NCBI GenBank assembly: GCA_964568535.1
Contig: CAZMPQ010000001.1
Coordinates: 6,183 to 70,182 of the forward strand
Direction of reading: 5' to 3'
DNA: 64,000 nucleotides
From: an uncultured Candidatus Saccharibacteria bacterium
Lineage (GTDB): Bacteria > Patescibacteriota > Minisyncoccia > UBA6257 > 2-01-FULL-56-20
A model generated the notes under the pieces. It did not search any database and was not told where the DNA came from. It was given only the letters and a program-made list of their open reading frames with translations. Position 1 is the first letter of the stretch. Each line of letters begins with the position of its first letter. Below are positions 34,124 to 62,112 of the stretch, one piece after another. The position numbers and the translations under genes are program-made.

Positions 34124-34177
34124 TGAACACCACCATCCTAGCCGAGAACCGCGCGTGCGGCAACCGGCGCACGCCGC

Positions 34178-34909: not shown

Positions 34910-34956
34910 ATATATGGAGATGCGGTCCCATGCCGGGGCCGCGCATGGTCATTGTA

Positions 34957-37826: not shown

Positions 37827-38052
37827 CTATTCCCCTTCTTCAGGCCCAGAGCCGCCGAAGAGCTTGCGAACGCCGGCAGTGAGCCGGAAAAAACGCGCGA
37901 GCGCCATCTGCCACAGCGAACTCCCCGCGCCGGGGTCAATGTACCCCAGGGCTTTCAATTGCTCTACAACTTCGTCACGTGAGGGATCTTGTTCGTCAGC
38001 CACGCGATGATGGTAGCAGAGGAAATGGAGGGTGTAAACGCTGACACGCCAA

Positions 38053-39054: not shown

Positions 39055-39079
39055 TGCATTGTTTAATGTGTTAGGGACC

Positions 39080-42139: not shown

Positions 42140-42165
42140 GATGATTGAACGATACCACGGAGGAA

Positions 42166-42177
42166 CCCCCCCCCCCC
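42166..42177. repeat. homopolymeric tract, C12 on the plus strand (G12 on the coding strand), 26 nt upstream of the conserved start of the 1039-aa gene
   Basis: Read directly. On the coding strand the context is GTGCGGGGGGGGGGGGTTCCTCCGTGGTATCGTTCAATCATCATG. With 12 G the tract is in frame with an upstream ATG at 42199. Confidence 0.8.
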
Positions 42178-42199
42178 GCACAAGCGGGGATGTGCACAA

Positions 42200-43138: not shown

Positions 43139-44075
43139 GGTTCGTAAAATCGTTTTCGTTCCACGCGATGGTCTCGCGCAGGCCGTTCTCAAGTGACGTC
43201 GTTGCGCGGAAACCGAATTCACGCTCCGCGCGGCCCGGGTCTAGAATGCGGCGCATTTGGCCGTCGGGCTTCATGCTATCCCACTGCACCTCGCCGCGGA
43301 AATCCATGAGCTTTGCAATGGTCTCTGCAAGCTCGCGAATGGAAATCTCCCATCCCGAGCCGATATTGACCGGTTCCGGCTTGCTGTACCGCTCTGCCGC
43401 AGAGACGAACGCCTCGGCGGCGTCCTTCACGAAAACGAAGTCGCGTGTCGGCGAGCCCGTTCCCCACAATGTGATGGACGATGCGCCGTCGCGCTTCGCC
43501 TCAAGTATTTTGCGGATGATGTTCGTGATAACGAATCCGCGCACCGCTTCCTTGCCGGGACCGTACATGTTGGTCATCAAAAGATGCACCGCATCAAAGC
43601 CGTACTGCGCGCGATATGCCTGCGCTTGCACAAGAAGCATCGTCTTCGCCACGGAATATGCCTCGTGGAGCTCCTCGACCGGCCCGGCCCAGATATCTTC
43701 CTCGCGGAACGGCATTGGCGCTCGCGCGGGATATTCGGTGATGCTTCCGGCGGTGACGAATTTTTTGACGCCGTTTTGCCGCGCGGCCTCCATAAGCTCC
43801 ACGCCCATCACCAGATTGTCGTGGAAAATTTCCGCAGGATGTTCGCGGTGGAACTGCCCGTCGCCCGTGATGCCGGCCAAATGGATAACCACGTCCACGC
43901 CCTTCGTCACCTCGCGGCATGCAGACGCGTTCCGTAGGTCGTGCGTTTCACGCGTCGGAACGACGATGTTCTTCTCCGGCGCGCCGCGGTCTTTCAATGC
44001 CTGGACCACGTGCGTGCCGAGAAAGCCGCTCCCGCCAGACACCAGGATTTTTTTATCGCGGAGGTCAAGCATCAA
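43131..44075 (-). CDS. second Fcl-like GDP-sugar epimerase/reductase (a tandem paralog; it may act on a 3,6-dideoxy intermediate, i.e. ColC-like)
   Basis: Starts MMLDLRDKKILVSGGSGFLGTHV. It shares the same SDR fold, is about 40-45% identical to the downstream paralog, and lies 2 nt before that gene's start. Confidence 0.7.
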   Translation of the reverse strand: MMLDLRDKKILVSGGSGFLGTHVVQALKDRGAPEKNIVVPTRETHDLRNASACREVTKGVDVVIHLAGITGDGQFHREHPAEIFHDNLVMGVELMEAARQNGVKKFVTAGSITEYPARAPMPFREEDIWAGPVEELHEAYSVAKTMLLVQAQAYRAQYGFDAVHLLMTNMYGPGKEAVRGFVITNIIRKILEAKRDGASSITLWGTGSPTRDFVFVKDAAEAFVSAAERYSKPEPVNIGSGWEISIRELAETIAKLMDFRGEVQWDSMKPDGQMRRILDPGRAEREFGFRATTSLENGLRETIAWNENDFTNHA

Positions 44076-44127
44076 TGCTTTGATACTACCCCACCGAATG
44101 ATGAAAAAACAACCGTAAAAGTACGTC

Positions 44128-44162
44128 GGCCCCGGACGCGCAACAGGTGCGCAGCCGGGGCC
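44128..44162 (-). terminator. GC-rich hairpin (8-bp and 5-bp stems) followed on the minus strand by TTTTACGGTTGTTTTTT
   Basis: The sequence is GGCCCCGG-ac-GCGCA-acagg-TGCGC-ag-CCGGGGCC. A T-rich run follows in the direction of transcription of the 44169..44777 gene. Confidence 0.5.
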
Positions 44163-44168
44163 AAGTCA

Positions 44169-44777
44169 CTACTTGACGAGCTCCACGTCGTCGATGTCAA
44201 CGAGAGATGCGAACGTCTCGGTGATGAACTGCCGATGGACCTCCGGCATCGGGTCGGGAAGCCGGTCCGCTCGGAAGAACCGGCGGTGCGGCGTTTCCTG
44301 CACGGGTGCCCGCGGAACGCACTTCACGAAGAGCGATAGCGGGTTGCCGAAGGGATGCGCCGCTGCGGGGTCCGTCTCGCGCGACGGCCAGAGCATCGGA
44401 TTGGGATACGAGCTCATATAGACCACATCCACGCCGACCTCCCGCAACGCGATCGTGGAACAGGCCTCCTGGAGCGTGCCCATCACCGGCTTGTACCACG
44501 CGCCCGGGATGACCCAGTGGTCACGGAACGCCTCGGTCGCGCCGTCGTAGAACGTGAGGAGTATCTCGCGGATGTGCGGTTCGTTCGGTGTGGGCCGGTC
44601 TAGTACGAGCTCCGGCGCCCACGTGGAACGTCCCGCTTCGGCGATGCGCCAGCAGCGCTCGCTTGGAAGCAGCCCCTTGTCTCGCGCTACCTTACCGAGC
44701 AGATGGTAGAGCGCCGCCTCCTCGCCGGTCGTGAACGAACTCTTCGGATGGATCTTCTGCAGACCTTCGTCGTTCAA
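44169..44777 (-). CDS. hypothetical protein; possibly a degenerate Nudix-fold hydrolase (GDP-mannose mannosyl hydrolase-like, by context)
   Basis: Carries PGAWYKPVMGTLQEACSTIALREVGV, which loosely resembles a Nudix box. It lies between the gmd and fcl genes. Confidence 0.35.
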   Translation of the reverse strand: MNDEGLQKIHPKSSFTTGEEAALYHLLGKVARDKGLLPSERCWRIAEAGRSTWAPELVLDRPTPNEPHIREILLTFYDGATEAFRDHWVIPGAWYKPVMGTLQEACSTIALREVGVDVVYMSSYPNPMLWPSRETDPAAAHPFGNPLSLFVKCVPRAPVQETPHRRFFRADRLPDPMPEVHRQFITETFASLVDIDDVELVK

Positions 44778-44793
44778 GACGTCCTCCTTCCTC

Positions 44794-45159
44794 TCAATTC
44801 AGATGCGCCGACTCGCCAGGATGGCGGACTGCACCGTCTTCCGTTCCTTCCTGCGACACCCACCGAACGGGCCGGCGACGCCGGATCGCATCGTCAGCGA
44901 GATCCATCTTCACGATGAAGCGGACCTTTCCGCTTCCGCGCTCGGTCTCCACATCGGCCTCGAACAGCTGACCGGAGACGCTGCCGATGCAGGTATGTGC
45001 GAACTGCGTTGTGATGCGGCCATCCATCTCGTCCGTCTTCACGCGCCGAGCCGCCTTGTACTGCCGCGCCATCTCACATGCGTTCAGCATGAGGCGCTCG
45101 GCAATGCTCGGGGTGACGCACACCTCCGCCCGCAACACGAAAAACCTCTGCCAGTGCAT
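44794..45159 (-). CDS. hypothetical protein
   Basis: A 121-aa ORF with no recognisable motif. Confidence 0.3.
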   Translation of the reverse strand: MHWQRFFVLRAEVCVTPSIAERLMLNACEMARQYKAARRVKTDEMDGRITTQFAHTCIGSVSGQLFEADVETERGSGKVRFIVKMDLADDAIRRRRPVRWVSQEGTEDGAVRHPGESAHLN

Positions 45160-45211
45160 ACCTCCACCTTCCCTTCCGTAAAAAGCCGGCAGTATATTAC
45201 GATAAAAAAAT

Positions 45212-46228
45212 CTACTTTGTCAATTTTCCTCCAACTGCCTTCAATTCCGCGCGGACCATGAGCTTCACCAGGTCTTTGAACTTCGTCTTTGCTTTCCAGC
45301 CAAGCTTCGTCCGTGCTTTGCGCGTATCAGCGACAAGATGCTCAACTTCGGACGGACGGTAGTAGCGCGGGTCTATCGCCACGTACTTTTTCCAATTCTT
45401 GATACCGGCTTCGGCGAACGCGAGCTCCACGAACTCGCGGACCGTGTGCGATTCACCCGTGCCGATAACATAATCGTCCGGTTTCGGTTGCTGGAGCATC
45501 TTCCACATCGCTTCCACATACTCCGGTGCATATCCCCAATCGCGGCGCGCGTTCAGATTTCCTAGATAGAGCTTTTTGTCCAAGCCCGCTTTGATGCGCG
45601 CAACGCCTCGCGCGATTTTCCGCGTCACAAAGGTCTCGCCGCGCCGTTCGGATTCATGATTAAAGAGAATGCCGTTCACGGCATAGATGCCGTACGCTTC
45701 GCGATAGTTCACGGTGGTCCAATAAGAGAACACTTTGGCAACGCCGTAAGGGCTCCGCGGATGGAATGAGGTCGTCTCCGACTGCGGCGGCTTCGCCGAA
45801 CCAAACATCTCTGATGAAGATGCCTGATAGAACCTCACTTTCCGGCCCGTTTCCTCCTCGTAATCCTTCACCGCTTCCAAAACGCGCAGGGTGCCGATAC
45901 CCGTGATGTTCGCGGTGTATTCCGGAATGTCGAAGGACACGCGGACGTGCGACTGCGCGCCGAGATTGTAGATTTCCGTCGGACGAACTTGATGGATGAG
46001 CTTCCGGACCGTGTTCGCGTCTGAAAGGTCGCCGAAGTGCAGGTGAAATCGTGACCCAGCTGCGTGGACGTCGCGGTAGAGATGCTCAATGCGCCCCGTG
46101 TTAAAGGTGGAAGCGCGACGGATGACCCCGTGCACGTCGTATTTTTTCTTCAACAAGAACTCGGCGAGGTAGGAACCATCCTGGCCCGTGATACCGAAGA
46201 TGAGAGCGGTGCGCGAGCGGGGTGTCAT
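45212..46228 (-). CDS. gmd: GDP-mannose 4,6-dehydratase
   Basis: Carries [50 protein letters not shown] and [21 protein letters not shown]. Confidence 0.85.
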
Positions 46229-46230
46229 GC

Positions 46231-46902
46231 TTATTGCTGTGCTTGGCCGGGTAGTTGAACGGGGCCGTTTATGCGTTCGAATTCGTCCAGTCGGCGCAGA
46301 AATTCGTCGGTTGCCGGAGCCACGCGATCATCATCCGGCCAGTTCTCTACTATCTTCTCCTGCATCTCCAGAACCCCTGCCCGGTCGCCGAGCATCCGAT
46401 ACACATCAAAGAGACCGTACAAGAATTGCGGCCGCTTCGGCGCAAGCGCGATGCCGCGAAGATAGTTTTGCTTTGCCGCTTCGAGATATCGGACATCGCC
46501 TGTCCGAACGAACGCGGTCTGATACATCGTCGCGAGCACGAAGATGTTCTGTGTGAAGCTCATGCCGGTCCCCCGGTCCATAATGCTCCGGTAGTTCTCT
46601 TCGGCAAATTGCACGATGGCGGGGAGCACTTCTTTGTTCTTTTCGTTGCTCAAATATGGCGTAATACTACTCACGAGATGCCGCACCAGCTCCTCTTGCC
46701 CAATCGGAGAAGGGATAGCAAGAACGCCCGTGAATACCTCTCGAAAGCTTCCGATGGTCGTCGTTGGAGCGTTCACTGTTCGCATCCCCTTAATGAACTC
46801 CTGCGACTTGCGCATCGGCAGATAACTTCCATAGTACGCCACACCGATGACGGCCACGGAGGCGGCGAGCGCAACGAGGCGTTTTACAGCAGAGCTCATC
46901 AT
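46231..46902 (-). CDS. hypothetical membrane-anchored protein
   Basis: An N-terminal TM segment ([17 protein letters not shown]) followed by a soluble helical domain. Confidence 0.4.
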
Positions 46903-48284
46903 GATATGCGGTGGCGGTCAAAAAGGAATCCGGCGAATGCAAGGAAAAGAAACACGTTTAGGTAGATGGGTAACACATCAAAAAGGATCATCCCCTGTAC
47001 CAGATATGCAGTGGGCAGCGCCGCAAGGAGCGCGGCTTCGGCGGGCGAAAGGTGCCGCTCACCGTTCGGCAGTATGACCGCAGCACCGTCACGTATGCGG
47101 CGATAGAGCGCGTTCGCAAAGACAGCGAACATGGCGATGAACGTTCCGAACCCTACAATGCCGGTCGTCGCGAGGTAGTCAAAAACGATGCTGTGGGCGC
47201 GGTCGAACCAAGTTTCGCCGCCCGACAGCGGATCAAAGTGCCGCGAATCAAAATGTTTGTCGAACGCCATACTAAAATTCTCCGGGCCCCAACCAAATGC
47301 CGGACGCTCCAAGAAGCCGCGCCACGCTGAGCCCCAGGTCCACAAGCGCGTTTGCGCCGACTGTGCCGAGAAGGTTGTTGTGAGAAGCCGCCCAGCGGGA
47401 AGCGCCGAGATATCGTCCCGACCGGCGAAAAGTTGATGCACAATAAGGATGAGTAGGACCAGTCCCGCAATGCCGCCGAATATCCTGTTCCGCCACCGAC
47501 GGTCCAGAAGCGCATATACGATAAGGAACACAAATATGGCGGCGAGCAGTCCCAAAAACGCTCCGCGTGTCTGGCTCATAATAAAGAACACGAAAAAGAA
47601 CGCGGCGAGCGTGCCGTAGATCGCATGTCGATTGCGCTGCTTCGGCTCGGTGAGCCACAGCCATCCGACATAGAAAAGTGTGAAGAGGAGATAGGGAGCT
47701 ACGAATGCGGGGTTTCCCAGCGAGCCCTGGAACCGGCTGGATGAGAATATCGTTTTTAACACGTTCCCTGCGTTCGGATCGCTCGGAGCGTACGGTCCCA
47801 CAAATCCGGGCACAAGCGCGGCGGCGAGCAGACCATACGCAATCATGAGCACAGCAGCCACAATGGACGCGCGGAGCGCCAAACGCCAGTCCGACCATCG
47901 GTCAAAGAGCACAGACAACAGTACAAAGAACAGATAGTAATGCAGCATTTGGAACCCGCCTTCGCCGCGTTCGTAGTTTGACCAGAACGCGCCATATGGG
48001 TCGTATGCGAACACGGTCGCGAGCAGGTACGCGAGCACGAACGCCGACACCGCAATGAAGAGCGGACGGCGCGACACAGCCCGCAGCCGCTCGCCGAGCT
48101 CTCCATCCTTTGCCTCGAACGCCCACCAGAGAAGCAGGAACACCAAGCCCAGCTCGGTCATCACGCGGAAGAAGTAGTACTTCCCGCCGATGAATGGGAA
48201 GAATGTCGTGCTCATCACAACCACTACGCTGAAGAGTGCGGCGGCGGTGAAGAACTTCGCGAGGTGACGGAGCGTGATGACCAT
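46899..48284 (-). CDS. O-antigen ligase/polymerase-like membrane protein (Wzy_C family)
   Basis: About 10 TM helices with a large loop near the C-terminus; carries LWTWGSAWRGFLERPAFGWGPENF. Confidence 0.6.
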   Translation of the reverse strand: MVITLRHLAKFFTAAALFSVVVVMSTTFFPFIGGKYYFFRVMTELGLVFLLLWWAFEAKDGELGERLRAVSRRPLFIAVSAFVLAYLLATVFAYDPYGAFWSNYERGEGGFQMLHYYLFFVLLSVLFDRWSDWRLALRASIVAAVLMIAYGLLAAALVPGFVGPYAPSDPNAGNVLKTIFSSSRFQGSLGNPAFVAPYLLFTLFYVGWLWLTEPKQRNRHAIYGTLAAFFFVFFIMSQTRGAFLGLLAAIFVFLIVYALLDRRWRNRIFGGIAGLVLLILIVHQLFAGRDDISALPAGRLLTTTFSAQSAQTRLWTWGSAWRGFLERPAFGWGPENFSMAFDKHFDSRHFDPLSGGETWFDRAHSIVFDYLATTGIVGFGTFIAMFAVFANALYRRIRDGAAVILPNGERHLSPAEAALLAALPTAYLVQGMILFDVLPIYLNVFLFLAFAGFLFDRHRIS

Positions 48285-48304
48285 AGGGGTGCTTCTATTG
48301 TACC

Positions 48305-53901: not shown

Positions 53902-54909
53902 ATGAGCGTGGAGCCATATCTCAAACATATTGAACGATTCAATGAACAGCTCACGCGCCGCGGCCTTGTGAGCGTCGGCTTGGACGGCCTGAGGCGCCGC
54001 GCGTCGGACACGGTCATTTTAGCAGGCATGGGCGGCTCGGCATTGCCGGGCGAGATCGTGAACGCCGTTGCGGAAGAACTCGGCCTGCGGCACACGGTCA
54101 TCATCTGGAAAGAATATGGACTTCCCCGCGTGTCGCACCACCACCGTTCGCCCCTCTACATCTTCACTTCATTCTCAGGCAACACCGAAGAAACGCTTTC
54201 GGGGCTCCGCGAGTTCTTAAAGACGTCACGCGCACGGTCTGGAGCACGCGCGGCGGTCATCACGACCGGCGGCGAACTCTTGCGCATCGCGAAGGCGAAC
54301 CGCATCCCTTACATCACATTCCCCGCCGGGGACTTGACACCGCGCCAGGCATCGGGTAAGATGTTCTATGCCATCAGTGAACTCCTCTTCGCCGCCCGGC
54401 TCATCGCCCGGAGGCCTCCGGAATTCACTCACCTTCGACCTCTGCTATGGAAACGGCGTGGCTACGAACTCGCCCGCCGCTTGAATCGAAAGCTCATTGT
54501 TATCTACACCGGAACCGCCGACCACTATTTGGGTTATTTCTGGAAGATCAAGTTCAATGAGTCCGCGAAAGTGCCGGCGTTCAACAACGTTATCCCCGAA
54601 ATGAACCACAATGAGCTCGTCGGGTTCACCAGGCCGAACTCGCCTGCTGCGGCGCTTCTCCTTGAACATCCGAACGCCCATGTACGAGTAAAGAAGCGGT
54701 TCCGCGTTTCCGCTCGACTGCTCTCCCGTCAAGGGGTCACGGCGCTCCTCATGCCCTTCGTCGGGAAAAGCAAGCTTGAAGAGACCTGGAACACTATTAT
54801 GTTCGCTGACTGGACCACCTACGCGCTCGCGAAATTGCGGCGAGTCGACCCTCGGGAGACCGAGATCATCGATGGACCGCAGGGGCTCAAAGCTGCGATG
54901 CGGAAGTAG
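53902..54909 (+). CDS. bifunctional phosphoglucose/phosphomannose isomerase (SIS domain, archaeal-type PGI/PMI)
   Basis: Carries VILAGMGGSALPGEIV and IFTSFSGNTEETL, and is about 330 aa long. Confidence 0.65.
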   Translation: MSVEPYLKHIERFNEQLTRRGLVSVGLDGLRRRASDTVILAGMGGSALPGEIVNAVAEELGLRHTVIIWKEYGLPRVSHHHRSPLYIFTSFSGNTEETLSGLREFLKTSRARSGARAAVITTGGELLRIAKANRIPYITFPAGDLTPRQASGKMFYAISELLFAARLIARRPPEFTHLRPLLWKRRGYELARRLNRKLIVIYTGTADHYLGYFWKIKFNESAKVPAFNNVIPEMNHNELVGFTRPNSPAAALLLEHPNAHVRVKKRFRVSARLLSRQGVTALLMPFVGKSKLEETWNTIMFADWTTYALAKLRRVDPRETEIIDGPQGLKAAMRK

Positions 54910-54959
54910 GTCTGGTTCGCACGGAGTGAATATATCGGGTATCGTTCATACGGCAATTC

Positions 54960-55041
54960 GGGGATGTGGCGGAACTGGCATACGCGTACGCTTCAGGAGC
55001 GTATGGAGCAATCCTTGAGGGTTCAAATCCCTCCATCCCCA
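54960..55041 (+). tRNA. tRNA-Leu (anticodon CAG), a type II tRNA with a long variable arm
   Basis: Hand-folded. The acceptor stem pairs GGGGATG with CATCCCC. The anticodon stem TACGC/GCGTA carries the loop TTCAGGA. The T-arm is GAGGG-TTCAAAT-CCCTC. CCA is not encoded. Confidence 0.7.
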
Positions 55042-55222
55042 CGAGCAGTAAATAAAAAGTCGTTATTGCCACACACCACAACACAAGAGAAATTTGTCGC
55101 TCGGGATTTGAACGGGAAAGGGGTCGGGGAAACGGGAGTTTCCCCGTGGAGGAAAACAGCCCCGCCAAATGGCGGGGCGCTAGAAACCGAGAGGTGTCTA
55201 GGGAGCGAATGAAATGAGCGAC

Positions 55223-55251
55223 GTTCAAATCCCTCCATCCCCACGAGCAGT
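55223..55251 (+). repeat. exact 29-bp direct repeat of the tRNA-Leu 3' end plus 8 flanking nt (GTTCAAATCCCTCCATCCCCACGAGCAGT); the first copy is at 55021..55049
   Basis: Read directly. The second copy has no matching 5' acceptor strand, so it is not a second tRNA. This is an attL/attR-like arrangement. Confidence 0.7.
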
Positions 55252-55342
55252 CATAAACTCTCAATAATCATTCATCAAATCTAACGTCGAGCGTTTTCCC
55301 TCTCGCCAGATCGCGAACAGGCGAAACGCAACAATTCATCAC

Positions 55343-57256
55343 ATGATGATACAAAAACCAAAACAGCCGCTCCGGCGCCCCGGAGCGCAGAAGCGCGGTA
55401 GCGCGCACGGAGCGCAAAAACCAACGGGTCCTCATCAACAAGACCGCGGTCCTCGCCGCGGCCCACGCCGCGACCGCGGCCGGCACGCTCCCCCAGAAGG
55501 CCCGCGGAGCTTCGGCCAGATACGGAAAACCAAGCATTATCGCGACCTTCCGCCGGATGTGAACGGCGAGCAAAAACCAGCCGGCCCGCGCGACCAAAAC
55601 GCAGTGCGGTTCGTACCGCTCGGCGGCCTTGAAGAGATCGGCCGCAACTGTTCGTTCTTTGAATACCAGAACGAGATCGTTGTCGTTGACGTCGGCATCC
55701 AATTCCCCGAAGAGGAGACGCCGGGCATTGACTACATCATCCCGAACGTCGCGTATCTCGAGGGGCGGAAGCAGCACGTCAAAGCGCTCTTGCTCACGCA
55801 CGGCCACTACGACCATATCGCCGCCATCCACTACCTCATTGAAAAGCTGGGCAATCCCATCATCTACACGTCCAAGTTCACGAAGGCCATCGTGGAAAAG
55901 CGGCACGAAGAGTTCCCGAACGCGCCGAAGCTGAAGTTCGTCGCGGTAGACAGCGGCACTCGCGTGAAACTGTCCGAACATTTCACGGCGGAATTCTTCG
56001 AAGTAGAACACACCATTCCCGAAGCGTACGGATTCGCTCTTGAAACGCCCGTCGGGAACATGGTGAACTTCGGTGACTTCCGCCTGGATTACAACAAGAG
56101 CGGCGAGCCCCGACAGCTTGAGATATTTGACCGGCTTGGGGCAAAGGGCATCCACTCGCTCTTTATGGATTCCACGAACGCGGACATCACCGGCAGGGGC
56201 GCATCCGAAGAAACGGTGAAAGAGAACTTGGAGGCGCTCATCAAAGCCGCGCCAGGACGCATCATCATCACGTGCTTCGCCTCGCTCGTAGACCGCATCA
56301 TTGAGATAACGGATGTGGCCCAGCGTCTCGGCAGGAAGGTGGCGGTCATCGGCCGCTCCATGACGAGCAACTTGGAAATTGCCCGTCAGCTCGGATACCT
56401 CAAAGAGAAAAAGGACCTTTTCATCCCCATTGAGGAGGCACAGAAATACAAGGACGACAAAATCCTCATCCTCACGACCGGGAGCCAGGGTGAACCGAAC
56501 GCACAATTCATGCGCATCGTGAACGGCGAGCATCGCATCGTGCGATTGAAACCTTCGGACACCGTCGTTTTCTCGTCGTCCGTCATTCCTGGAAACGAAC
56601 GGAGCATTCAGGCCTTGCAAGACAATATCTCTCGCCAGGTGGATGAGCTCTATAACTCTAAATTACTGGACATCCACGCGTCCGGACATTGTCACAAGGA
56701 AGATCTTGCGCTCGTGCTCTCGCGTGTGAAACCGAAATTCGTCGTACCTATCCACGGGTACTACTTCAAACGGAAGTCTGTCATCAAGACCGCGGGTTCG
56801 GTCGGTATCGACCGAGATCGCGTTGTTCTCATGGACAACGGCCAGGTCGCCGAGCTCACGCCTGATAAGTTCACCGTGACGAACGAGAACGTTCCCGCGT
56901 TCTATGTGATGGTAGACGGCCTCGGCGTCGGCGATGTGGAGGAGGTGGTCATTCGCGACCGGCGTTCCCTCGCGCAGGAGGGCATGATCGTCACCATCAT
57001 TACTGTGGACCGACACAACGGCCGGCTCCTGAAGAATCCCGACATTATCTCGCGCGGGTTCATCCTCATGAAGGACAACCAGGAGATCCTGGACGAGATA
57101 CGAAAGCGCGTACGGAACGTCATGGCGGGGCTCCCAGCGTACCGTGAAGTTGAGCCGGACTACCTGAAGACCCTTATCCGCGACCAATTGGGCACGTTCC
57201 TGTACAATAAGACCAAGCGGCGGCCGATGATTCTCCCTGTTATCATAGAAATATAG
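55343..57256 (+). CDS. rnj: ribonuclease J (beta-CASP metallo-beta-lactamase), with an Arg/Pro/Gly-rich N-terminal extension of about 70 aa
   Basis: Carries HGHYDHIAAIHYL, the beta-CASP region and the C-terminal domain. The N-terminus reads RRPGAQKRGSAHGAQKPTGPHQQDRGPRRGPRRDRGRH. Confidence 0.85.
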   Translation: MMIQKPKQPLRRPGAQKRGSAHGAQKPTGPHQQDRGPRRGPRRDRGRHAPPEGPRSFGQIRKTKHYRDLPPDVNGEQKPAGPRDQNAVRFVPLGGLEEIGRNCSFFEYQNEIVVVDVGIQFPEEETPGIDYIIPNVAYLEGRKQHVKALLLTHGHYDHIAAIHYLIEKLGNPIIYTSKFTKAIVEKRHEEFPNAPKLKFVAVDSGTRVKLSEHFTAEFFEVEHTIPEAYGFALETPVGNMVNFGDFRLDYNKSGEPRQLEIFDRLGAKGIHSLFMDSTNADITGRGASEETVKENLEALIKAAPGRIIITCFASLVDRIIEITDVAQRLGRKVAVIGRSMTSNLEIARQLGYLKEKKDLFIPIEEAQKYKDDKILILTTGSQGEPNAQFMRIVNGEHRIVRLKPSDTVVFSSSVIPGNERSIQALQDNISRQVDELYNSKLLDIHASGHCHKEDLALVLSRVKPKFVVPIHGYYFKRKSVIKTAGSVGIDRDRVVLMDNGQVAELTPDKFTVTNENVPAFYVMVDGLGVGDVEEVVIRDRRSLAQEGMIVTIITVDRHNGRLLKNPDIISRGFILMKDNQEILDEIRKRVRNVMAGLPAYREVEPDYLKTLIRDQLGTFLYNKTKRRPMILPVIIEI

Positions 57257-57622: not shown

Positions 57623-58612
57623 ATGCCCGAACCAATTCTTGTATCAGGAATCCAGCCCTCCGGCCGTCTCCATATCGGGAACTACTTGGGCGCGCTCAAA
57701 AACTTCGTTGACCTGCAGAACTCGCGGAAATATTCCTGCTACTTCTTCCTCGCGGACCTGCACTCGCTCACCGAGTATCCCGCAGGCGCTACGGAGCAGA
57801 AAAAGCGTATTCTAGAACTCACCGCTGATTTTCTCGCGGCTGGTTTGGACCCGAAGAAATCACTCATCTACCAACACTCGCAGATCCCCGCGCATAGCGA
57901 AATGGCGTGGATTTTGAACACCATCACGCCGATGGGCGAACTGGAACGAATGACGCAGTACAAGGACAAGTCCGTGCGCCAACATGAGGTGAACGCTGGC
58001 CTCCTCACCTATCCGACGCTTATGGCCGCGGACATTTTGCTCTACGATGCGAAGTATGTCCCTGTCGGGAACGACCAGGACCAGCACCTTGAGCTCACAC
58101 GCACGCTCGCGCGAAAGTTCAATAAAAAATTTGGGAAGACGTTCGTTGAACCGGAAGGACTCCACACCGCGACTCCGCGTGTGATGTCTTTGAAAGACCC
58201 GTCAAAGAAGATGTCTAAATCTCAGCCGGAGACGTGCCTTTTTCTGGATGAATCCCCCGTTGAGCTAGAGAAGAAGATAAAAAGTGCAACGACCGACTCC
58301 GGAAGCGATGTGCGGTACGATGCGAAGGAAAAGCCGGGCATCTCGAACTTACTTGATATCTACTGCGGCGTAACCGGAAAAACTGTTCCGCAGGCGGTCA
58401 AAGAATTCCGCGGCAAGCAATACGGCGCCTTCAAGCAAAAAGTTGCGGAGGCGGTTGTGAAACATCTCGCGCCGTTCCGCACGAAAAAGGCAGCGCTCAT
58501 GAAAAAACCGACGGTGCTCGCGAAAGTGCTCGCAACCGGCTCGGCAAAAGCGGCGAAAGTCGCAGACGCGAAGATCGCAGGAGTGAAGGAGAAGGTCGGG
58601 CTTGCGCTCTAG
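57623..58612 (+). CDS. trpS: tryptophanyl-tRNA synthetase
   Basis: Carries the HIGH-class motif GRLHIGNYLG, plus KMSKS and GNDQDQHLELTR. Confidence 0.85.
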   Translation: MPEPILVSGIQPSGRLHIGNYLGALKNFVDLQNSRKYSCYFFLADLHSLTEYPAGATEQKKRILELTADFLAAGLDPKKSLIYQHSQIPAHSEMAWILNTITPMGELERMTQYKDKSVRQHEVNAGLLTYPTLMAADILLYDAKYVPVGNDQDQHLELTRTLARKFNKKFGKTFVEPEGLHTATPRVMSLKDPSKKMSKSQPETCLFLDESPVELEKKIKSATTDSGSDVRYDAKEKPGISNLLDIYCGVTGKTVPQAVKEFRGKQYGAFKQKVAEAVVKHLAPFRTKKAALMKKPTVLAKVLATGSAKAAKVADAKIAGVKEKVGLAL

Positions 58613-61600
58613 ACCTTTCGCACGCCGAGCCAGATATCAACGCCGTCCAGTTTTGCCTGGATCTCGGCGGTAAACTTCCCTTTCTTATACTCTATTGTCT
58701 TTGCGCCTACCTCGGTTTTGAGGAATTTTTCGTTCTCCTGAACGATCGCGCCGACGCTCGGCGCTTCTACCATCAGCACAATGGCGTCCTTCGCCTGAAG
58801 CCCGGCATTCTGCCGCAACTCCTGTACCATCCGCACGAGGTCGCGCAACGTTCCCTCGGCTTTGAGCTCCGGTGTAATGGTTGTATCGAAAACAACCTCG
58901 TCGTTCTTTGTCGCATCATCCCATACAATTTCCTTCACGTTTATCTCGTCTTTCAGGATACTGATGAGTTCTTTGTTGCTCTTGACACCTGATACCTGAT
59001 ACCTGACACGAACGGATGCGAGCGGCTGACGAACCTTAATACCAAGTTCCGCGCGCTTCGCGAGCGCTACGCTTGCAATGCGCCGTATTTCGCCCATTGC
59101 GGCAACCAGTTTCGCATCCATTTGTTTTTTGTCTAACGCGGGCCAGGTATCCAGATGCACCGACTCCTTTTCGCCCAATCCGTGATAGATGCTTTCCGCA
59201 AAGAACGGCGTGAATGGGGCCATCAGTTTCGCGGTCTCGCGCAATACATGCGCAAGCATTGCGGACGCGGCTTCGTAATCGGCTTTTGAATCGGGCTTCT
59301 GCAAACGCCGGCGCGAGCGGCGGATGAACCAGCGCGAAAGGTCGTCCACAAGCGTCTCTATCGCGAGTGCCGCCTCGCGTATCTCGTACTGCTCTAATTG
59401 TTTCGTCGCTTCGGCTATCGTCTCGTTCAACCGCGCTAGTATCCAACTATCCAACACATTTCCTGATACCTGATACTTGACACCTGACACCTTGGCGGCA
59501 TATGTCCGCCAAAAGATCAGCGAGTTGTAGACGATGAGGTGCACGCGCCGGAACGTTTTTTGGATGTCCACTTCGTCGAAGTTTTTCGGTTCGCCGAGCG
59601 GCGAATTCGTATAGAGATACCAGCGCACGGCGTCCACGCCATATTTTTCGATGACCGCGAACGGCTCCACGATATTCCCCTTGGACTTGCTCATCTTCTG
59701 CCCGTTCTTATCGTTCACAAGCCCGAGGCAGACGACGTTCTTGAACGGCGCGGGGTATCCGAGCGCGGTCGCGATTGCAACGAGCGTATAGAACCAGCCA
59801 CGCGTCTGGTCGATGCCTTCAGAAATATAGTCCGCAGGAAATGCTGACGGGCGCTTCCCGCGCTTCACGAACGGGAAGTGCTCTTGTGCGTATGGCATTG
59901 CACCCGAGTCGTACCATACGTCTGCGACCTCCGGCACACGACGCATCTCTCCCTTGCATTTCTTGCATGGGAGCGTGAGTTCGTCCGCGAACGGCCGATG
60001 GAGATCTACTTCGCCGGTATCGTTCCGCGGGATAGTTTTGAGCTCCAATGGGACCACTTCTCCGGTGCGCATGAACACATCGTTATGCAGCGATTTCTTC
60101 TCGGCTGTTTCTTTCTCCGTCCATCCATTCGCGATCTGCGAGAGCATCCAGATGGTATCTTCATGGCTCACCAAAAGTATCCGTTTCCCGGCATACGCCT
60201 TCTCGGTCCCTTGCAAGAAGTCCCATGCGCGCGTACGAACATCGCGAAGCGACTCGGCGCGTGGCACGGCATGTTCGCTGAATCGCATCTCCTGCTCGGG
60301 AATTTTTTTCTGATACTCCCCCACTGGCCGCCCAGACAGTTCCGCAAGTTGTATTTCACGAAGTCGCTTATCGAACAGAACTTTTTTAATGCCGAGCTCT
60401 TTTGCAACAATGGCCGCGGTTTCTTTCGTTCGAAGGATGTCAGATGCGATGATGACGTCTATCTTTTCCTTTTTGAGCCTCTTCGCGGCTTGCTTCACCT
60501 GATCTTTTCCGAGCGTTGAGAGGTGAAATCGCTGATTGCCCGAGTCAATGATGTGTTTGATGTTTCCTTCTGCCTCTCCGTGCCGAAGTGCGAAATAGGC
60601 ATTTTTTGCCCTCTTCCCGCGCGCGGAAAGTTCGTGCAAGCTTCCGATCACTTCGCGCGTATCGCACTTCTTGCACTCCCAAATTGGAAGCGGTACGCCC
60701 CAGTAGCGTTCGCGAGACAGGTTCCAGTCCTTCGCTTCGCGGAGCCACTCACCAAAACGGCCTTCTTTGATATGATCCGGCACCCACGTGATGCCCTTAT
60801 TGTTCGCGAGCAGTTCTTTCCGAAGCTTGGACATCGCGATGAACCACGACGTCCGCGCGTAGTACAAGACCGGCGTTCCGCATCGCCAGCAAAATGGATA
60901 TTCGTGCTTATACTTCTCTATGCGCAGGAGGTTCTTGTTCTTTGTAAGATGTGCGAATATCTTATCCTCGGTTTCTTTCGCCTTTGCGGACATGCCCGCA
61001 AGCCCGCCGGGAACTTCTTTCTTAAATATGCCCTCTTCCGTTACGGTGTGATGTTGCGGCAAGCCCACCTTCACGCCAAGTTGGTAGTCGTCCTCGCCGT
61101 ACATTACAGCGGTATGCACCACGCCCGTGCCATCCGTTGTTGTCACGAAGCTTGCAGGATATACCTTGTATGCCGCCTCGTTCTTCAGTGCCAAGATTTT
61201 GAACAGCGGTTCGTATTCCAGGCCAACAAGGTCTTCGCCGCTCACTTTGCCGATAACATCGTATTCGGTTTTGCCAAGCACCGCGGGCGCCAATTCTTCC
61301 GCTACCACATATGTTTCTTTCGCGCTCTTCGGCCGCACGAGCGCATATTTCACTTTTTCGCCCACTGCAAGCGCGACATTTCCCGGCAGCGTCCACGGCG
61401 TCGTCGTCCACGACAGAATAAAGAGCGGACCGTCTGTTTTAAAATGCGGCCTTGATAGTACTTTGAACTTCAGATAGACCGATTGGTCCTCTACTTCCGC
61501 ATATCCTTGGGCCAATTCGTGCGATGAAAGCGCCGTTCCGCACCGCGAGCACCACGGCACGACTTTGTGGCCTTTGTAGAGCAATTTCTTCTTCGCGATC

Positions 61601-62112
61601 TCCGAGAGCGTCCACCAGATGCTTTCAATATAGTCGGCGGAGTACGTGACATAGGCGTTCTTCAAGTCCAGCCAGTAGCCGATGCGCTCCGTGAGCCGCT
61701 CCCATTCGTCCTTGTAGAGCCAGACGGCTTTTTTCGCCTCTTCGTTGAACTTTTGAACGCCGAACTTTTCTATGTCGGCTTTGGACTTCAATCCGAGCGC
61801 CTTTTCTGCCGCAATCTCCACGGGCAATCCGTGCGTGTCCCACCCAGCTTTGCGCGGCACGCGATATCCCTGCATCGTTTTAAAGCGCAGGATGATGTCT
61901 TTCACGACGCGCGCGAGCACGTGGTGAATGCCCGGCTTCCCGTTCGCGTACGGCGGCCCCTCGTAGAAAACAAATATCTTTTTTCGTTTCGGATCGAGCG
62001 TCTTCTCGAATATCCGATTCGTTTTCCAAAATTCCAGTACTTTTTCCTCCACTTTTGGGAGGTCGAATCCATCGCTCAAAAAGTCACGGCGCGTAGCTGC
62101 CCTCTTTTGCAT
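58609..62112 (-). CDS. ileS: isoleucyl-tRNA synthetase carrying an inserted histidine-phosphatase (PGAM-like) domain
   Basis: Carries PYANGKPGIHHVLARVVKDI, the editing domain, KMSKSKGN and the anticodon-binding region. An insert of about 190 aa (residues ~500-690) carries ALRHGEAEGN...IIASDILRTKETA...ILLVSHEDTI. Confidence 0.85.
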   Translation of the reverse strand: MQKRAATRRDFLSDGFDLPKVEEKVLEFWKTNRIFEKTLDPKRKKIFVFYEGPPYANGKPGIHHVLARVVKDIILRFKTMQGYRVPRKAGWDTHGLPVEIAAEKALGLKSKADIEKFGVQKFNEEAKKAVWLYKDEWERLTERIGYWLDLKNAYVTYSADYIESIWWTLSEIAKKKLLYKGHKVVPWCSRCGTALSSHELAQGYAEVEDQSVYLKFKVLSRPHFKTDGPLFILSWTTTPWTLPGNVALAVGEKVKYALVRPKSAKETYVVAEELAPAVLGKTEYDVIGKVSGEDLVGLEYEPLFKILALKNEAAYKVYPASFVTTTDGTGVVHTAVMYGEDDYQLGVKVGLPQHHTVTEEGIFKKEVPGGLAGMSAKAKETEDKIFAHLTKNKNLLRIEKYKHEYPFCWRCGTPVLYYARTSWFIAMSKLRKELLANNKGITWVPDHIKEGRFGEWLREAKDWNLSRERYWGVPLPIWECKKCDTREVIGSLHELSARGKRAKNAYFALRHGEAEGNIKHIIDSGNQRFHLSTLGKDQVKQAAKRLKKEKIDVIIASDILRTKETAAIVAKELGIKKVLFDKRLREIQLAELSGRPVGEYQKKIPEQEMRFSEHAVPRAESLRDVRTRAWDFLQGTEKAYAGKRILLVSHEDTIWMLSQIANGWTEKETAEKKSLHNDVFMRTGEVVPLELKTIPRNDTGEVDLHRPFADELTLPCKKCKGEMRRVPEVADVWYDSGAMPYAQEHFPFVKRGKRPSAFPADYISEGIDQTRGWFYTLVAIATALGYPAPFKNVVCLGLVNDKNGQKMSKSKGNIVEPFAVIEKYGVDAVRWYLYTNSPLGEPKNFDEVDIQKTFRRVHLIVYNSLIFWRTYAAKVSGVKYQVSGNVLDSWILARLNETIAEATKQLEQYEIREAALAIETLVDDLSRWFIRRSRRRLQKPDSKADYEAASAMLAHVLRETAKLMAPFTPFFAESIYHGLGEKESVHLDTWPALDKKQMDAKLVAAMGEIRRIASVALAKRAELGIKVRQPLASVRVRYQVSGVKSNKELISILKDEINVKEIVWDDATKNDEVVFDTTITPELKAEGTLRDLVRMVQELRQNAGLQAKDAIVLMVEAPSVGAIVQENEKFLKTEVGAKTIEYKKGKFTAEIQAKLDGVDIWLGVRKV

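Follow-up and report, generated by a model that had tools for sequence, protein, structure and literature searches.

A structured non-coding insert with tRNA-derived arms beside a tRNA-Leu(CAG) gene, a member of an apparently undescribed element family in Patescibacteria

Results

A tRNA-Leu gene with a repeated 3' end

The locus lies in a window of 64 kb, by which we mean the whole stretch of DNA analysed, and comprises an intact tRNA-Leu(CAG) gene, a non-coding interval and the RNase J gene rnj. ARAGORN places the tRNA at 54960-55042 on the plus strand as its sole tRNA call and finds no second tRNA or tmRNA in the window. The 29-mer GTTCAAATCCCTCCATCCCCACGAGCAGT occurs as two exact copies in the window, at 55021-55049 and 55223-55251 on the same strand, confirming the initial annotation, which had described an exact 29-bp repeat of the tRNA 3' end lying 202 bp downstream. 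The copies are 202 bp apart from start to start with 173 bp between them, and none of 100 dinucleotide-preserving shuffles gave any match to the 29-mer at three or fewer mismatches. The first copy does combine the end of the tRNA with its flank, although it holds the last 21-22 nt and 7-8 nt of flank rather than 20 and 9 as had been stated. The second copy was rightly not taken for a second tRNA; it has no 5' acceptor partner because no further tRNA or tmRNA is called. A second tRNA, a tmRNA and a permuted tmRNA were likewise rejected as readings of the repeat region, where the 5' strands of T-stem and acceptor are missing.

Both GC hairpins that had been noticed at the outset are present, at 55125-55146 and 55159-55178. 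To these we add a perfect 12-bp inverted repeat, absent from the earlier description, that pairs 55103-55114 with 55222-55233, overlaps the second copy and closes the whole structure. The accompanying statement that the interval holds no ORF needs qualification: mechanical ORFs of 125 aa (54887-55264, minus strand), 82 aa (54964-55212, plus strand) and 73 aa (55023-55244, minus strand) do overlap it, but the longest has no Pfam match, all run over the tRNA, and indels of 4 nt and 1 nt in an orthologous copy disrupt their frames.

The features of the locus are given below, with reference to two comparison loci: L001, the closest empty site, and L204, the orthologous copy in a sister species (RNase J 89% identical in amino acids).

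54960-55042, plus strand: tRNA-Leu(CAG), intact (ARAGORN; Rfam RF00005 at 54960-55041, 55.9 bits); 83/83 positions identical in L204
55021-55049, plus strand: repeat copy 1; tRNA-Leu positions ~53-76 and 8 nt of flank
55043-55086, plus strand: native tRNA-to-rnj spacer, outside the element; alignable with the L001 spacer as far as the anchor CACAACACAA (55077-55086); 68-72% identity to L204, neutral-like
55087-55267 (each end +/- ~5 nt), plus strand: inferred inserted block, holding all parts of the element; missing from L001
55103-55114, plus strand: IR-L, 5' arm of P1, GGGATTTGAACG; P1 covariation; antisense to tRNA G53-C63 (T-loop and start of the T-stem 3' strand)
55114-55125, plus strand: joiner J1/2, GGGAAAGGGGTC; invariant in 20/20 aligned members
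55125-55146, plus strand: hairpin P2, CGGGGAAAC-GGGA-GTTTCCCCG, with a GNRA loop on the plus strand (the first of the hairpins noticed earlier); covariation; identical in L204
55147-55158, plus strand: joiner J2/3, TGGAGGAAAACA, family consensus GTGGCGGAA..; from the alignment
55159-55178, plus strand: hairpin P2a, GCCCCGCC-AAAT-GGCGGGGC (the second hairpin noticed earlier); optional and lineage-variable, present in a subset of members with differing sequences
55180-55201, plus strand: hairpin P3, CTAGAAACC-GAGA-GGTGTCTAG; compensatory changes
55202-55221, plus strand: variable segment GGAGCGAATGAAATGAGCGA at the P4 position, where other subtypes have a hairpin; 70% identical to L204, neutral-like
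55222-55233, plus strand: IR-R, 3' arm of P1, CGTTCAAATCCC; repeats, in sense orientation, the tRNA T-loop and the first part of the T-stem 3' strand
55223-55251, plus strand: repeat copy 2, formed by IR-R and the tail; tRNA positions 53-73 in sense and 8 nt of tRNA flank; 29/29 identical to copy 1

In the predicted fold, IR-L and IR-R pair as P1, which closes a junction of P2, P2a and P3 with invariant purine-rich joiners, and the 3' part of repeat copy 2 (55234-55251) is left single-stranded. The multi-hairpin fold of the window copy has a z-score of -3.6. Folding also gives a weak hairpin, GCAGTAA/TTATTGC, directly 3' of the tRNA and within the native spacer. A pseudoknot between J2/3 and the P3 loop (GCGG/CCGC) was discarded on inspection, its covariation being inconsistent. 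A minus-strand small RNA ending at the GCCCCGCC hairpin as a 'terminator' was also rejected: P2a is optional, and the supposed T-run is the complement of the conserved A-run of J2/3.

Empty sites and the point of insertion

Comparison of the tRNA-Leu locus with its counterparts in relatives revealed empty sites and varying occupancy. The gap between tRNA and rnj is 10-90 nt in empty relatives as against 300 nt in the window, and a covariance model built from the family (R1, described below) finds a match at 3 of ~67 syntenic tRNA-Leu/rnj loci, leaving ~64 of the 67 without the element. In L001, which has the same acceptor stem and an RNase J of 73% identity, the anchors CACAACACAA and TCATTCATC stand 4 nt apart, as against 181 nt in the window, giving a block of ~177 nt whose boundaries rest on these two short anchors; their colinearity was reproduced in 0 of 5000 shuffles.

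This comparison puts the point of insertion ~44 nt downstream of the tRNA, with the second repeat copy inside the inserted block. It also shows the spacer of the window to be native, which disposes of the spacer as a part of the element or as a target-site duplication. Because this native spacer lies between the tRNA and the element, the inserted DNA is not bracketed by the two copies, and the attL/attR geometry at first proposed for them cannot be upheld. Of the origins that the initial annotation had offered, namely the scar of an excised or decayed element, a small non-coding insert or a structured leader of rnj, the small non-coding insert proved correct: this is extra inserted DNA tied to a tRNA 3' end.

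No consistent short target-site duplication was seen at the inferred boundaries (+/- 5 nt), and neither a near-identical pair of occupied and empty strains nor a circular junction was found among the loci compared. The tRNA-Leu/rnj junction is a general hot spot for insertion, holding islets and tRNA fragments unlike the resident tRNA. It is from their distribution only that we infer mobility of this element and its relatives.

Conservation in a sister species

The repeat is conserved in the sister species, yet occupancy of the junction varies between genomes. In the comparison with L204, J1/2 and P2 together are 92% identical, P3 96% and J2/3 88%, and the tRNA-derived 21 nt of the tail are identical at 21/21 positions. 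The flanking intergenic DNA reaches 59-72% with gaps counted and up to 76% without, while the optional hairpins (70-79%; P2a 75-79%) are neutral-like. The element has been inherited vertically, with core and tail conserved above neutral flanks, and is not decaying. The scar of a decayed element is accordingly set aside, the more so as the same compact core recurs with covariation at ~35 loci. Conservation between orthologous copies argues for a host-level function over a purely selfish element.

A family of elements 3' of tRNA genes

About 35 relatives share the core (of 120 hits in a metagenome pattern scan, ~34 proved to be true members), and further members were found in genomes or contigs at L003, L038 and L204. 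We regard them as a family of apparently undescribed structured elements 3' of tRNA and tmRNA genes in Patescibacteria (CPR bacteria), a range established for the named MAG loci. The window copy scores 91.9 bits (E = 3e-25) against R1. Of 34 members, 27 have a tRNA or tmRNA gene ahead of them on their own strand, at a distance of 14-115 nt (median ~56 nt), and every tRNA- or tmRNA-linked member is on the strand of its tRNA or tmRNA. The neighbouring genes cover at least 11 amino acid specificities (among them Ala, Glu, Ser, Gly, Val, Thr, Arg, Met, Gln, Phe and other Leu isoacceptors) and one tmRNA. At L114 and L173, IR-L begins only 14-15 nt after the tRNA.

The family core consists of the invariant joiner GGGAAAGGGGUC, a GNRA-capped P2, the joiner GUGGNGGAA and P3, with P2a and P4 as optional additions. 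Cores at different tRNAs are nearly identical in sequence, which could reflect concerted evolution instead of recent movement. The 21-mer that forms the variable P4 segment of the window copy recurs at a different position in L038. Each locus holds one copy among the windows of ~10-60 kb (up to 64 kb) examined, and tandem, nested or inverted partial copies accompany L103, L120 and L154. A second, unrelated core (AGCCGGAGCG...GTGACC) has the same arm architecture.

Some members are expanded. In the cargo form L105, a ~65-nt repeat brackets 1.76 kb with Ham1, PRTase and GrpB genes; the core stands at the right end, and the gene downstream encodes an HD-domain protein. This cargo is one of nucleotide-metabolism genes and contains no recombinase. 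The expansions of L099 and L138 lie in P2 and are non-coding, P2 of L132 contains a small ORF for what by eye we take to be a helix-turn-helix protein, and L156 is interrupted by an unrelated transposase-like ORF that is, by inspection, presumably IS481-like. No autonomous ORF-bearing version and no recombinase was found among the expanded members inspected, nor does any of the 54 ORFs of the 64-kb window encode an integrase, transposase, reverse transcriptase, HUH or GIY-YIG protein.

An Rfam search of the insert, as the initial annotation had suggested, returned no family beyond tRNA: with the window copy and a consensus-like member as queries against Rfam 15 (E up to 10), only the tRNA scored, and all other matches had E >= 0.07, far below gathering. 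Phage and plasmid collections held no match to the element, a pattern scan of viral contigs gave chance matches only, and literature searches found no description of such an element.

Covariation and strand

P1, P2 and P3 have 85% of their cells paired, as against at most 60% in slid controls, and their covariation score was reached by 0 of 500 shuffles. Across 20 members, each outer pair of P3 shows 3-11 double compensatory changes; P2 has 99% of its cells paired and shows compensatory change between A-U and G-C. P1-P3 is a conserved secondary structure backed by compensatory changes. The P2 loop is of GNRA type on the plus strand in 17 of 20 members and, together with tandem G.A, suggests that the element acts as an RNA of the same strand as the tRNA. 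Folded single-stranded DNA could equally account for the structure; the wobble count (G.U to A.C, 12:14) favours neither strand, and the fold is equally stable on both. We found no conserved promoter at a fixed distance upstream of IR-L, and read-through from the tRNA would therefore be the simplest source of an RNA.

Both arms match the adjacent tRNA

Throughout the family, the 5' arm is antisense to the T-loop and T-stem 3' strand (positions 53-65), and the 3' arm is a sense copy running from the T-loop to the tRNA 3' end and a few nucleotides beyond. Pairing of the arms as P1 leaves the acceptor-strand copy as a 3' tail. Copies have no more of the arms in common than the T-loop-like inner 8-9 nt; the outer parts are locus-specific and track the local tRNA. 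IR-L agrees with its own tRNA at 3.76 of 4 positions in the interval 57-60 (2.71 cross-locus) and at 3.28 of 5 in the interval 61-65 (2.31 cross-locus; p<5e-5 by permutation for positions 57-65). The tail matches its own tRNA at positions 61-73 in 21 of 26 loci (11.8 vs 8.1; p<5e-5, permutation). The likeness of IR-L ends at about position 65 and is at chance level at 66-69; the tRNA-proximal spacer was thus rejected as a full inverted copy of the tRNA tail. Three of the 10 informative loci carry CCA in the tail though the tRNA gene lacks it. Gene conversion with the tRNA, rather than selection, could be the cause of tail identity.

Discussion

A probable tRNA-addressed insertion module

We judge it reasonably likely that the insert at about 55087-55267 is a tRNA-addressed, non-autonomous structured insertion module, probably working as RNA. 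Such a module would be, or would once have been, mobile or duplicative, with the tRNA-derived arms serving as its 'address'. The neighbouring tRNA gene, or the transcript of it, may be the template from which the arms are written and updated, with the T-loop-like inner ends of P1 seeding the copying and no integrase crossover involved; the RNA would be made from the tRNA's strand, most simply via read-through. The route by which the arms gain tRNA sequence is conjecture.

The same evidence has to be weighed against a host-functional, essentially non-mobile non-coding RNA, either a conserved small RNA gene or a 3' trailer domain; selection would keep its arms matched to the cognate tRNA, and its patchiness would reflect ancient origin and frequent loss. 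This has an appreciable claim, though we think it unlikely. Its role might, for example, be to control tRNA 3' processing or insulate it, to serve as a decoy that draws off factors binding or cutting the tRNA tail, or to alternate between two pairing partners, the T-arm of the tRNA and its own tail. The conservation of the L204 ortholog far above neutral flanks, with its tail intact at all 21 positions, is what such a role would predict, as are the tRNA specificity of both arms and the covariation with GNRA loops; IR-L would have two possible pairing partners, the real tRNA and the tail, of which L114 and L173 are examples, and no mobilising gene lies nearby. What speaks against it is the distribution: the element occupies 3 of ~67 syntenic loci and is missing in L001 despite the same acceptor stem, while nearly identical cores stand at different tRNAs. 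Furthermore, the cargo of L105 and the partial copies at L103, L120 and L154 resemble insertion behaviour, an unrelated second core carries the same arms, and the junction is a general hot spot.

A bolder proposal, which we hold to be improbable, is that the module is a mobile RNA element with a tRNA address, perhaps a ribozyme of a new class, that could retarget itself to any tRNA and has no protein gene. Its 5' arm would be an internal guide sequence pairing with the T-loop and T-stem of the tRNA or pre-tRNA; the RNA would join to the tRNA 3' fragment at about position 56/57, and the chimera would be copied back into DNA beside the cognate tRNA gene. Joining at ~56/57 would account for tails that start in the T-loop, and the proposal as a whole would account for tails that end at the mature or precursor 3' end and for the CCA in three of them.

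Integrases of the T-loop class have a textbook signature at tRNA and tmRNA genes: a direct repeat in fixed orientation that starts in the T-loop and extends a few nucleotides past the 3' end of the tRNA. A footprint of this kind would make the 29-bp copies attL and attR, produced by crossover in the T-loop, with the core supplying arm sites, and the insert would then be a decayed or minimal element or an attP-only satellite that a tyrosine integrase mobilises in trans. Such a tRNA-end direct repeat is present, the 202-bp spacing of its copies is attP-sized, the hot spot contains islets and tRNA fragments unlike the resident one, and L105 resembles a repeat-flanked island. We nevertheless consider a tRNA-targeting integrase a poor candidate. 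Native spacer separates the tRNA from an element inserted ~44 nt 3' of it, the antisense arm IR-L has no place in att geometry, and copy 2 has no T-stem 5' half-site. An integrase element would be expected to have one tRNA target per family, set by an identity block in attP, whereas here one core serves at least 11 specificities and a tmRNA; indeed, conservative recombination cannot yield one core with tRNA-specific 3' ends at a dozen intact tRNAs. Freely covarying stems point to a nucleic-acid structure and not to protein-binding double-stranded sites, the element is conserved rather than decaying, and no integrase occurs in the window or in the L105 cargo.

Slightly less credible again is a folded single-stranded DNA recombination site of the attC or CTX-phage hairpin attP type. 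Here P1 would recreate, in cis, the T-loop region of the tRNA gene as a duplex to be recognised by a structure-specific enzyme, either a tyrosine recombinase or an HUH nuclease; the hairpins of the core would correspond to the variable terminal structure, and any cargo would take the upstream place of the ORF in a cassette. An inverted repeat that is long, imperfect and a mimic of the target does close a variable branched structure 3' of optional cargo, stability on both strands and wobble counts that pick no strand would fit, 'empty' cassette-sized versions predominate, and on inspection the G|TTC and GAAC inner ends recall R-box GTT and AAC. These GAAC/GTTC motifs are at the inner and not the outer end of the stem, however, and the joiners, unlike attC, are strongly conserved in sequence as well as in structure; GNRA bias and tandem G.A favour RNA. 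The tRNA-specific tails are as problematic here as for any conservative recombinase, the insertion point is outside the T-loop, and the window has no IntI-like or HUH gene.

A structured 5' leader or cis-regulator of rnj, the remaining origin raised by the initial annotation, is very improbable: the element does stand on the rnj strand, 91 nt ahead of the start of that gene, and has a conserved copy in the sister species, but it is missing at ~64 of 67 tRNA-Leu/rnj loci and matches no Rfam leader, and elsewhere it is found after at least 11 other types of tRNA and after a tmRNA, where the genes downstream are unrelated.

Significance

If the family is real and, as Rfam 15 and the literature suggest, undescribed, it would be a new type of tRNA-linked element in tiny-genome bacteria that are rich in RNA elements. 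To our knowledge, almost no regulatory RNAs are known in Patescibacteria, and the conserved tail and core offer a predicted, testable candidate for a tRNA-interacting RNA. The family raises the question of how a ~180-bp element with no protein gene writes the sequence of a neighbouring tRNA into both of its ends. Candidate answers are templated gene conversion, RNA capture and guide-directed insertion, each bearing on tRNA insertion hot spots and on RNA-guided mobility. For annotation, tRNA 3'-end repeats in Patescibacteria MAGs should not automatically be read as att sites of prophages or islands, and R1 can be used to identify elements of this kind.

Comparison with known systems

With the integrative elements that target tRNA and tmRNA genes, namely tyrosine-integrase genomic islands and prophages of T-loop sublocation, and with derivatives of these that lack an integrase (CIME-type and satellite elements), the insert has in common the tRNA 3' end, fixed orientation, a direct repeat from T-loop to end, sporadic occupancy of a hot spot, cargo-bearing and cargo-less forms, and tandem accretion. 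Unlike them, it lies ~44 nt past an untouched tRNA, includes the second copy and has no integrase; one core serves many tRNAs, each with its own tail, and there is an antisense arm and a covarying fold conserved between species.

Bacterial MITEs and Correia/CREE, ERIC, REPIN and RUP elements are likewise non-autonomous, non-coding, intergenic units of 100-200 bp that can be co-transcribed and whose terminal inverted repeats fold as a long hairpin. The terminal repeats of the insert, by contrast, are copied from a neighbouring gene and differ from locus to locus, its site is tied to tRNA 3' ends on one strand with no short fixed target-site duplication seen, and its joiners are as invariant as in a functional RNA. 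Integron attC sites with their gene cassettes and the single-stranded attP of CTX phage share an imperfect inverted repeat that mimics or completes the target, a variable branched centre, a position 3' of optional cargo and 'empty' units. The insert departs from attC in its conserved primary sequence, tRNA target, long tRNA-specific tail and RNA-like loops, and it has no IntI/Xer context.

tRNA mimics such as the bacterial Y RNA YrlA, tmRNA and viral tRNA-like structures similarly place T-arm-derived sequence and a tRNA-like 3' end in a larger RNA. In the insert, only the 3' strand of T-stem and acceptor is copied and its partner is the antisense arm, so that no tRNA-like L-shape results; the sequence is specific to the adjacent tRNA, and none of these RNAs was matched in Rfam.

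Group I introns sit in Patescibacteria tRNAs (PMC13011429), and structured RNA elements are abundant there and tied to tRNA genes. A likeness to self-splicing and processing RNAs, group I introns and R2 among them, may be seen in IR-L, which as the reverse complement of an intact T-loop and T-stem resembles an internal guide sequence, and in putative co-transcription with a host RNA gene. R2 elements have an HDV-like ribozyme whose P1 includes host 28S sequence. Unlike at a group I intron, the tRNA is uninterrupted (ARAGORN), neither RF00028 nor any ribozyme model is matched, there is no ORF or reverse transcriptase, and the putative splice site has no U.G, IR-L pairing U54 and U55 through A and not G.

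Guide-addressed transposons, namely CRISPR-associated transposons at tRNA genes and IS110 with its bridge RNA, differ in carrying transposase, Cas or recombinase genes and Tn7-like ends, none of which is found in the ~180-bp insert, where a guide role of the arms is hypothetical. What the insert shares with them is a carried match to the tRNA, a single orientation and a tRNA left intact. Their insertion falls at a roughly constant ~50-65 nt past the matched site, and that of the present family at a similar, if less fixed, 14-115 nt.

A folded insert downstream of tRNA-Leu(CAG)

The sole tRNA of the window, tRNA-Leu(CAG) (54960-55042, + strand; Rfam, 55.9 bits), stands within the gene order bacterial PGI, tRNA-Leu, RNase J (rnj) and TrpRS, with IleRS on the opposite strand. 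The initial annotation described an exact 29-bp repeat of the tRNA 3' end, and this is borne out: the window contains exactly two copies of the 29-mer GTTCAAATCCCTCCATCCCCACGAGCAGT, at 55021-55049 and 55223-55251 (spacing 202 bp), with a match in 0/100 dinucleotide-preserving shuffles. Copy 1 runs from G53 of the tRNA through its 3' end and 8 nt of flank. Both GC hairpins described there are also present. The reported lack of an ORF needs qualifying: mechanical ORFs do overlap the region, yet none has a Pfam match and their frames are broken by indels in the orthologous copy of a sister-species contig (L204). Absent from that annotation was a perfect 12-bp inverted repeat pairing 55103-55114 (GGGATTTGAACG) with 55222-55233, which overlaps repeat copy 2; once it is included, a closed multi-hairpin junction is predicted (z = -3.6, both strands).

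Comparing the locus with relatives, as had been proposed, yielded both an empty site (L001) and occupied ones (L003, L038, L204). Among relatives with an empty site, L001 is the closest, and it has the same acceptor stem as the window; on either side of a gap, the short native spacer of L001 can be aligned to the window. The left anchor CACAACACAA (55077-55086) and right anchor TCATTCATC (55268-55276) are separated by 4 nt in L001 and by 181 nt in the window, and their colinear occurrence was reproduced in 0/5000 shuffles. Since these anchors bracket it, the inserted block is ~55087-55267. It begins ~44 nt 3' of an untouched tRNA-Leu and contains repeat copy 2, a geometry that contradicts the proposed attL/attR insertion footprint and likewise a target-site duplication of the insertion point.

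Parts of the inserted element, in window coordinates
55103-55114: IR-L, antisense copy of the neighbouring tRNA, spanning G53 to position ~65
55114-55125: J1/2, invariant joiner N-GGGAAAGGGGTC
55125-55146: P2, hairpin of 8-9 bp with a GNRA loop in 17/20 members
55147-55158: J2/3, joiner GTGGNGGAA..
55159-55178: P2a, optional hairpin, represented in the window by the GCCCCGCC hairpin
55180-55201: P3, hairpin of 8-9 bp
55202-55221: P4 position, variable hairpin or segment
55222-55251: IR-R and tail, sense tRNA copy from T-loop to 3' end, plus 0 to >25 nt of flank

The element has a conserved folded core whose closing helix, P1, pairs antisense and sense copies of the adjacent tRNA T-arm region (IR-L with IR-R), followed by a copy of the acceptor strand as tail. 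In many members IR-R reads GTGA, not GTTC, placing tandem G.A/A.G beside the junction. On the family alignment, 85% of cells in P1, P2 and P3 are paired, compared with at most 60% when partners are slid, and the observed covariation score was reached by 0/500 shuffles; in P3, each outer pair underwent 3-11 double compensatory changes.

By permutation test, the two arms are each specific to the tRNA of their own locus. IR-L agrees better with its own tRNA than with those of other loci at positions 57-60 (3.76/4 vs 2.71, p<5e-5) and 61-65 (3.28/5 vs 2.31, p<5e-5), with no own-tRNA excess at positions 66-69. In 21/26 loci the tail agrees with the local tRNA over positions 61-73, in 17 of them perfectly (11.8 vs 8.1, p<5e-5), and its 3' end typically falls within 1-3 nt of the tRNA 3' end. 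The motif (C)AGTA directly follows the tRNA-like tail in the window (55244-55251) and in L003, L126, L160, L110 and L146, and in L114 it follows the tRNA itself; such a motif might signal a boundary or a processing site.

A family at many tRNA genes

At four rnj loci besides that of the window, a distinct tRNA-Leu tail of the locus's own is also duplicated downstream. A conserved core is common to the window, L003 and L038. Scanning metagenome contigs with a degenerate core pattern matched at least 120 stretches. Among the 120 matches listed, at least ~34 are true relatives, with the core ..ATTCGAAC-N-GGGAAAGGGGTC-GGGAAAAC-GGGA-GTTTTCCC-GTGGCGGAA..-AAACC-GNNN-GGTTT.. Of these 34 listed members, 27 have a same-strand tRNA 14-115 nt upstream (median ~56 nt; a tmRNA in L167), and the remainder are cut by contig ends or bear cargo. 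Specificities represented upstream comprise Ala, Glu, Ser, Gly, Leu (three isoacceptors), Val, Thr, Arg, Met, Gln and Phe. Under a covariance model derived from 20 members, the window copy reaches 91.9 bits; among 80 rnj loci the hits of this model are confined to the window, L038 and L003, and each metagenome locus has a single copy. Neither the window element, for which an Rfam search had been suggested, nor a consensus-like member matches Rfam 15, which speaks against a known RNA family; phage and plasmid collections also gave no match.

Two tRNA-Arg genes are followed by a second, unrelated core (AGCCGGAGCG...GTGACC) with arms of the same design, so this architecture is a property of the process rather than of one core. 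The fuller form of the second core, ..GGAATCGAA|AGCCGGAGCG...GGGGTCGCGA...GTGACC|GATTCC.., lies at ~2766-2900 in L115, where the tail resembles another tRNA-Arg of the same contig, and on the reverse strand at the contig end of L107, where the repeat comprises the tail and at least 25 nt of flank.

L105 has 1.76 kb of cargo, with Ham1, PRTase and GrpB genes, between two copies (~85% identical) of a ~65-nt repeat made up of the tRNA-Gln tail and ~37 nt of flank, the core forming the right-end module; the window copy is the cargo-less form. Long near-perfect palindromes (14-20 bp) start at tRNA +1 to +3 in ~19/27 occupied loci, against ~3/32 other tRNAs of the same contigs (for example L134 4922-4960, L150, L107 and L108). 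Their left arms are A-rich and right arms T-rich, their sequence is unique to each locus, and CTYGY, or the reverse complement of it, is frequent in the loops. These palindromes may be native terminators preferred by the element, or may be made together with it.

Inverted or tandem partial core copies or degenerate tails accompany full elements in L154 (~3324-3477, with CCCGACCCCCTTTC upstream), L103 (~140-260, second unit truncated) and L120 (~3290-3375), which suggests that insertion or rearrangement has happened more than once at a given tRNA. In L156 (~150-1400) a member is broken shortly after P2 by a 445-aa ORF, by eye an IS481-type DDE transposase, with the IR-L-like GCGAGAATCGAAC repeated on both sides.

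The tRNA-Leu/rnj junction and its surroundings

Judged by its RNase J relatives, the window belongs to Patescibacteria (Parcubacteria, Paceibacteria or Minisyncoccia-type MAGs). The tRNA-Leu(CAG)-rnj synteny is kept in ~67/80 species representatives, most with a gap of 10-90 nt compared with 300 nt in the window. In other relatives, translations inspected by eye place HIT, HAD, toxin-antitoxin or nucleoside-transferase-type genes at the junction. Downstream of the intact resident tRNA-Leu, L002, L014, L024, L068 and L072 carry tRNA-Leu 3'-end fragments unlike it, that of L068 including anticodon-arm sequence and a tail identical to the L038 type; this suggests repeated exchange or insertion. 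With such varied genes and non-resident fragments occupying it, the junction is an insertion hot spot. L023 (3552-3862) holds a different insert type that shares the tail-copy theme: a 79-aa stand-alone GIY-YIG nuclease gene (Pfam) begins directly after the CCA of tRNA-Leu and precedes a perfect tail copy, with a 47-nt perfect palindrome exactly within the T-loop of that copy (GAGTTC|palindrome|GAATCTCC...).

Several features of the surrounding genes may be recorded here. The RNase J ORF opens with a basic, low-complexity N-terminal extension of ~85 residues (55343-55620), very variable in length among relatives (alignments begin at query residues 1 to ~88); its DNA contains an imperfect 38-nt direct repeat (55407-55444 and 55563-55600, 71% identity) and a GC hairpin (55368-55387). 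Within the 1167-aa IleRS (58609-62112, - strand), the two catalytic-domain halves are separated by a full histidine-phosphatase domain (His_Phos_1, residues 509-668, E = 7e-33), an unusual insertion or fusion for IleRS. Two large paralogous proteins of ~1050 aa (27152-30328 and 39080-42199, both - strand), with Laminin_G_3 and a C-terminal Matrixin-like metalloprotease motif, lie inside or beside a very large glycosyltransferase and sugar-nucleotide cluster (~970-24200 and 34000-48300).

Inheritance, mechanism and alternatives

The nearest RNase J relative (P0001, 89% amino acid identity) lies on L204, where synteny is identical and an orthologous element is present. Identity between window and L204 is 64% in the upstream intergenic region, 68-72% in the native spacer, 59-76% in the downstream intergenic region, 75-79% in P2a and 70% at the P4 position; it is 83% in IR-L, 92% in J1/2 plus P2, 96% in P3, and 100% in both the tRNA and the 21 tRNA-derived nucleotides of the tail. 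The lone IR-L change within the conserved GAAC retains pairing as G.U on the + strand. This ortholog, with its high core and tail identity, demonstrates vertical inheritance under selective constraint and excludes the scar of an excised or decayed element envisaged in the initial annotation, of whose readings only a small non-coding insert survives. The tail identity reflects selection or, possibly, gene conversion with the tRNA. The module is inserted, heritable, constrained and non-autonomous.

On balance we favor a mobile or duplicative module that acts as RNA from the strand of the tRNA, with the tRNA-derived arms serving as its address and written by templated copying. GNRA loops and tandem G.A pairs argue for RNA function from that strand; wobble statistics favor neither strand. 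As no fixed promoter was found, read-through from the upstream tRNA would be the simplest source. Such copying, with the neighbouring tRNA gene or its transcript as template, would both create the arms and keep them current; the T-loop-like inner ends of P1 would seed it.

The main rival, a host-functional, essentially non-mobile tRNA-linked RNA that is frequently lost, appears unlikely, if still a serious contender. Rather less probable is that the 3' fragment of a tRNA or pre-tRNA is captured as RNA and then copied back into DNA. In its favor, IR-L is the exact reverse complement of intact T-loop/T-stem sequence, tails begin at about position 56/57 and mostly end at the tRNA 3' end, and at 3/10 informative loci (~0.7 expected by chance) the tail has a CCA that the gene lacks: tails of L084, L087 and L160 read ...N73-CCA, while the adjacent genes encode CAA or CAT at 74-76. 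Conversely, genes in L134 and L151 encode a CCA missing from their tails, and group II introns, with their reverse transcriptase class, are reported absent from Patescibacteria (PMC13011429).

An integrase satellite is improbable. The same core bears locus-specific tails at a dozen tRNAs, each intact, which conservative recombination cannot yield; the antisense IR-L has no att role, and neither the 54 window ORFs nor the L105 cargo include an integrase, transposase, RT, HUH or GIY-YIG gene. A folded single-stranded DNA recombination site, which the fold predicted on both strands would suit, we regard as slightly more doubtful still. A structured rnj leader, as once suggested, is scarcely credible for an element missing from ~64/67 rnj loci and found beside many other tRNAs. 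Nor is this a classical MITE: its terminal repeats are locus-specific, with no fixed short duplication seen.

We rate the family among tRNA-associated non-autonomous elements or structured non-coding RNA motifs. It is a widespread and apparently unannotated set of structured insertion modules that mimic tRNA tails in Patescibacteria, and there is a real chance that it could prove categorically new once its mechanism is known. A literature search returned no description of it, the nearest system being the group I introns that sit in the anticodon loops of Patescibacteria tRNAs (PMC13011429). It is tempting to liken IR-L, as the reverse complement of an intact T-loop/T-stem, to the internal guide of introns.
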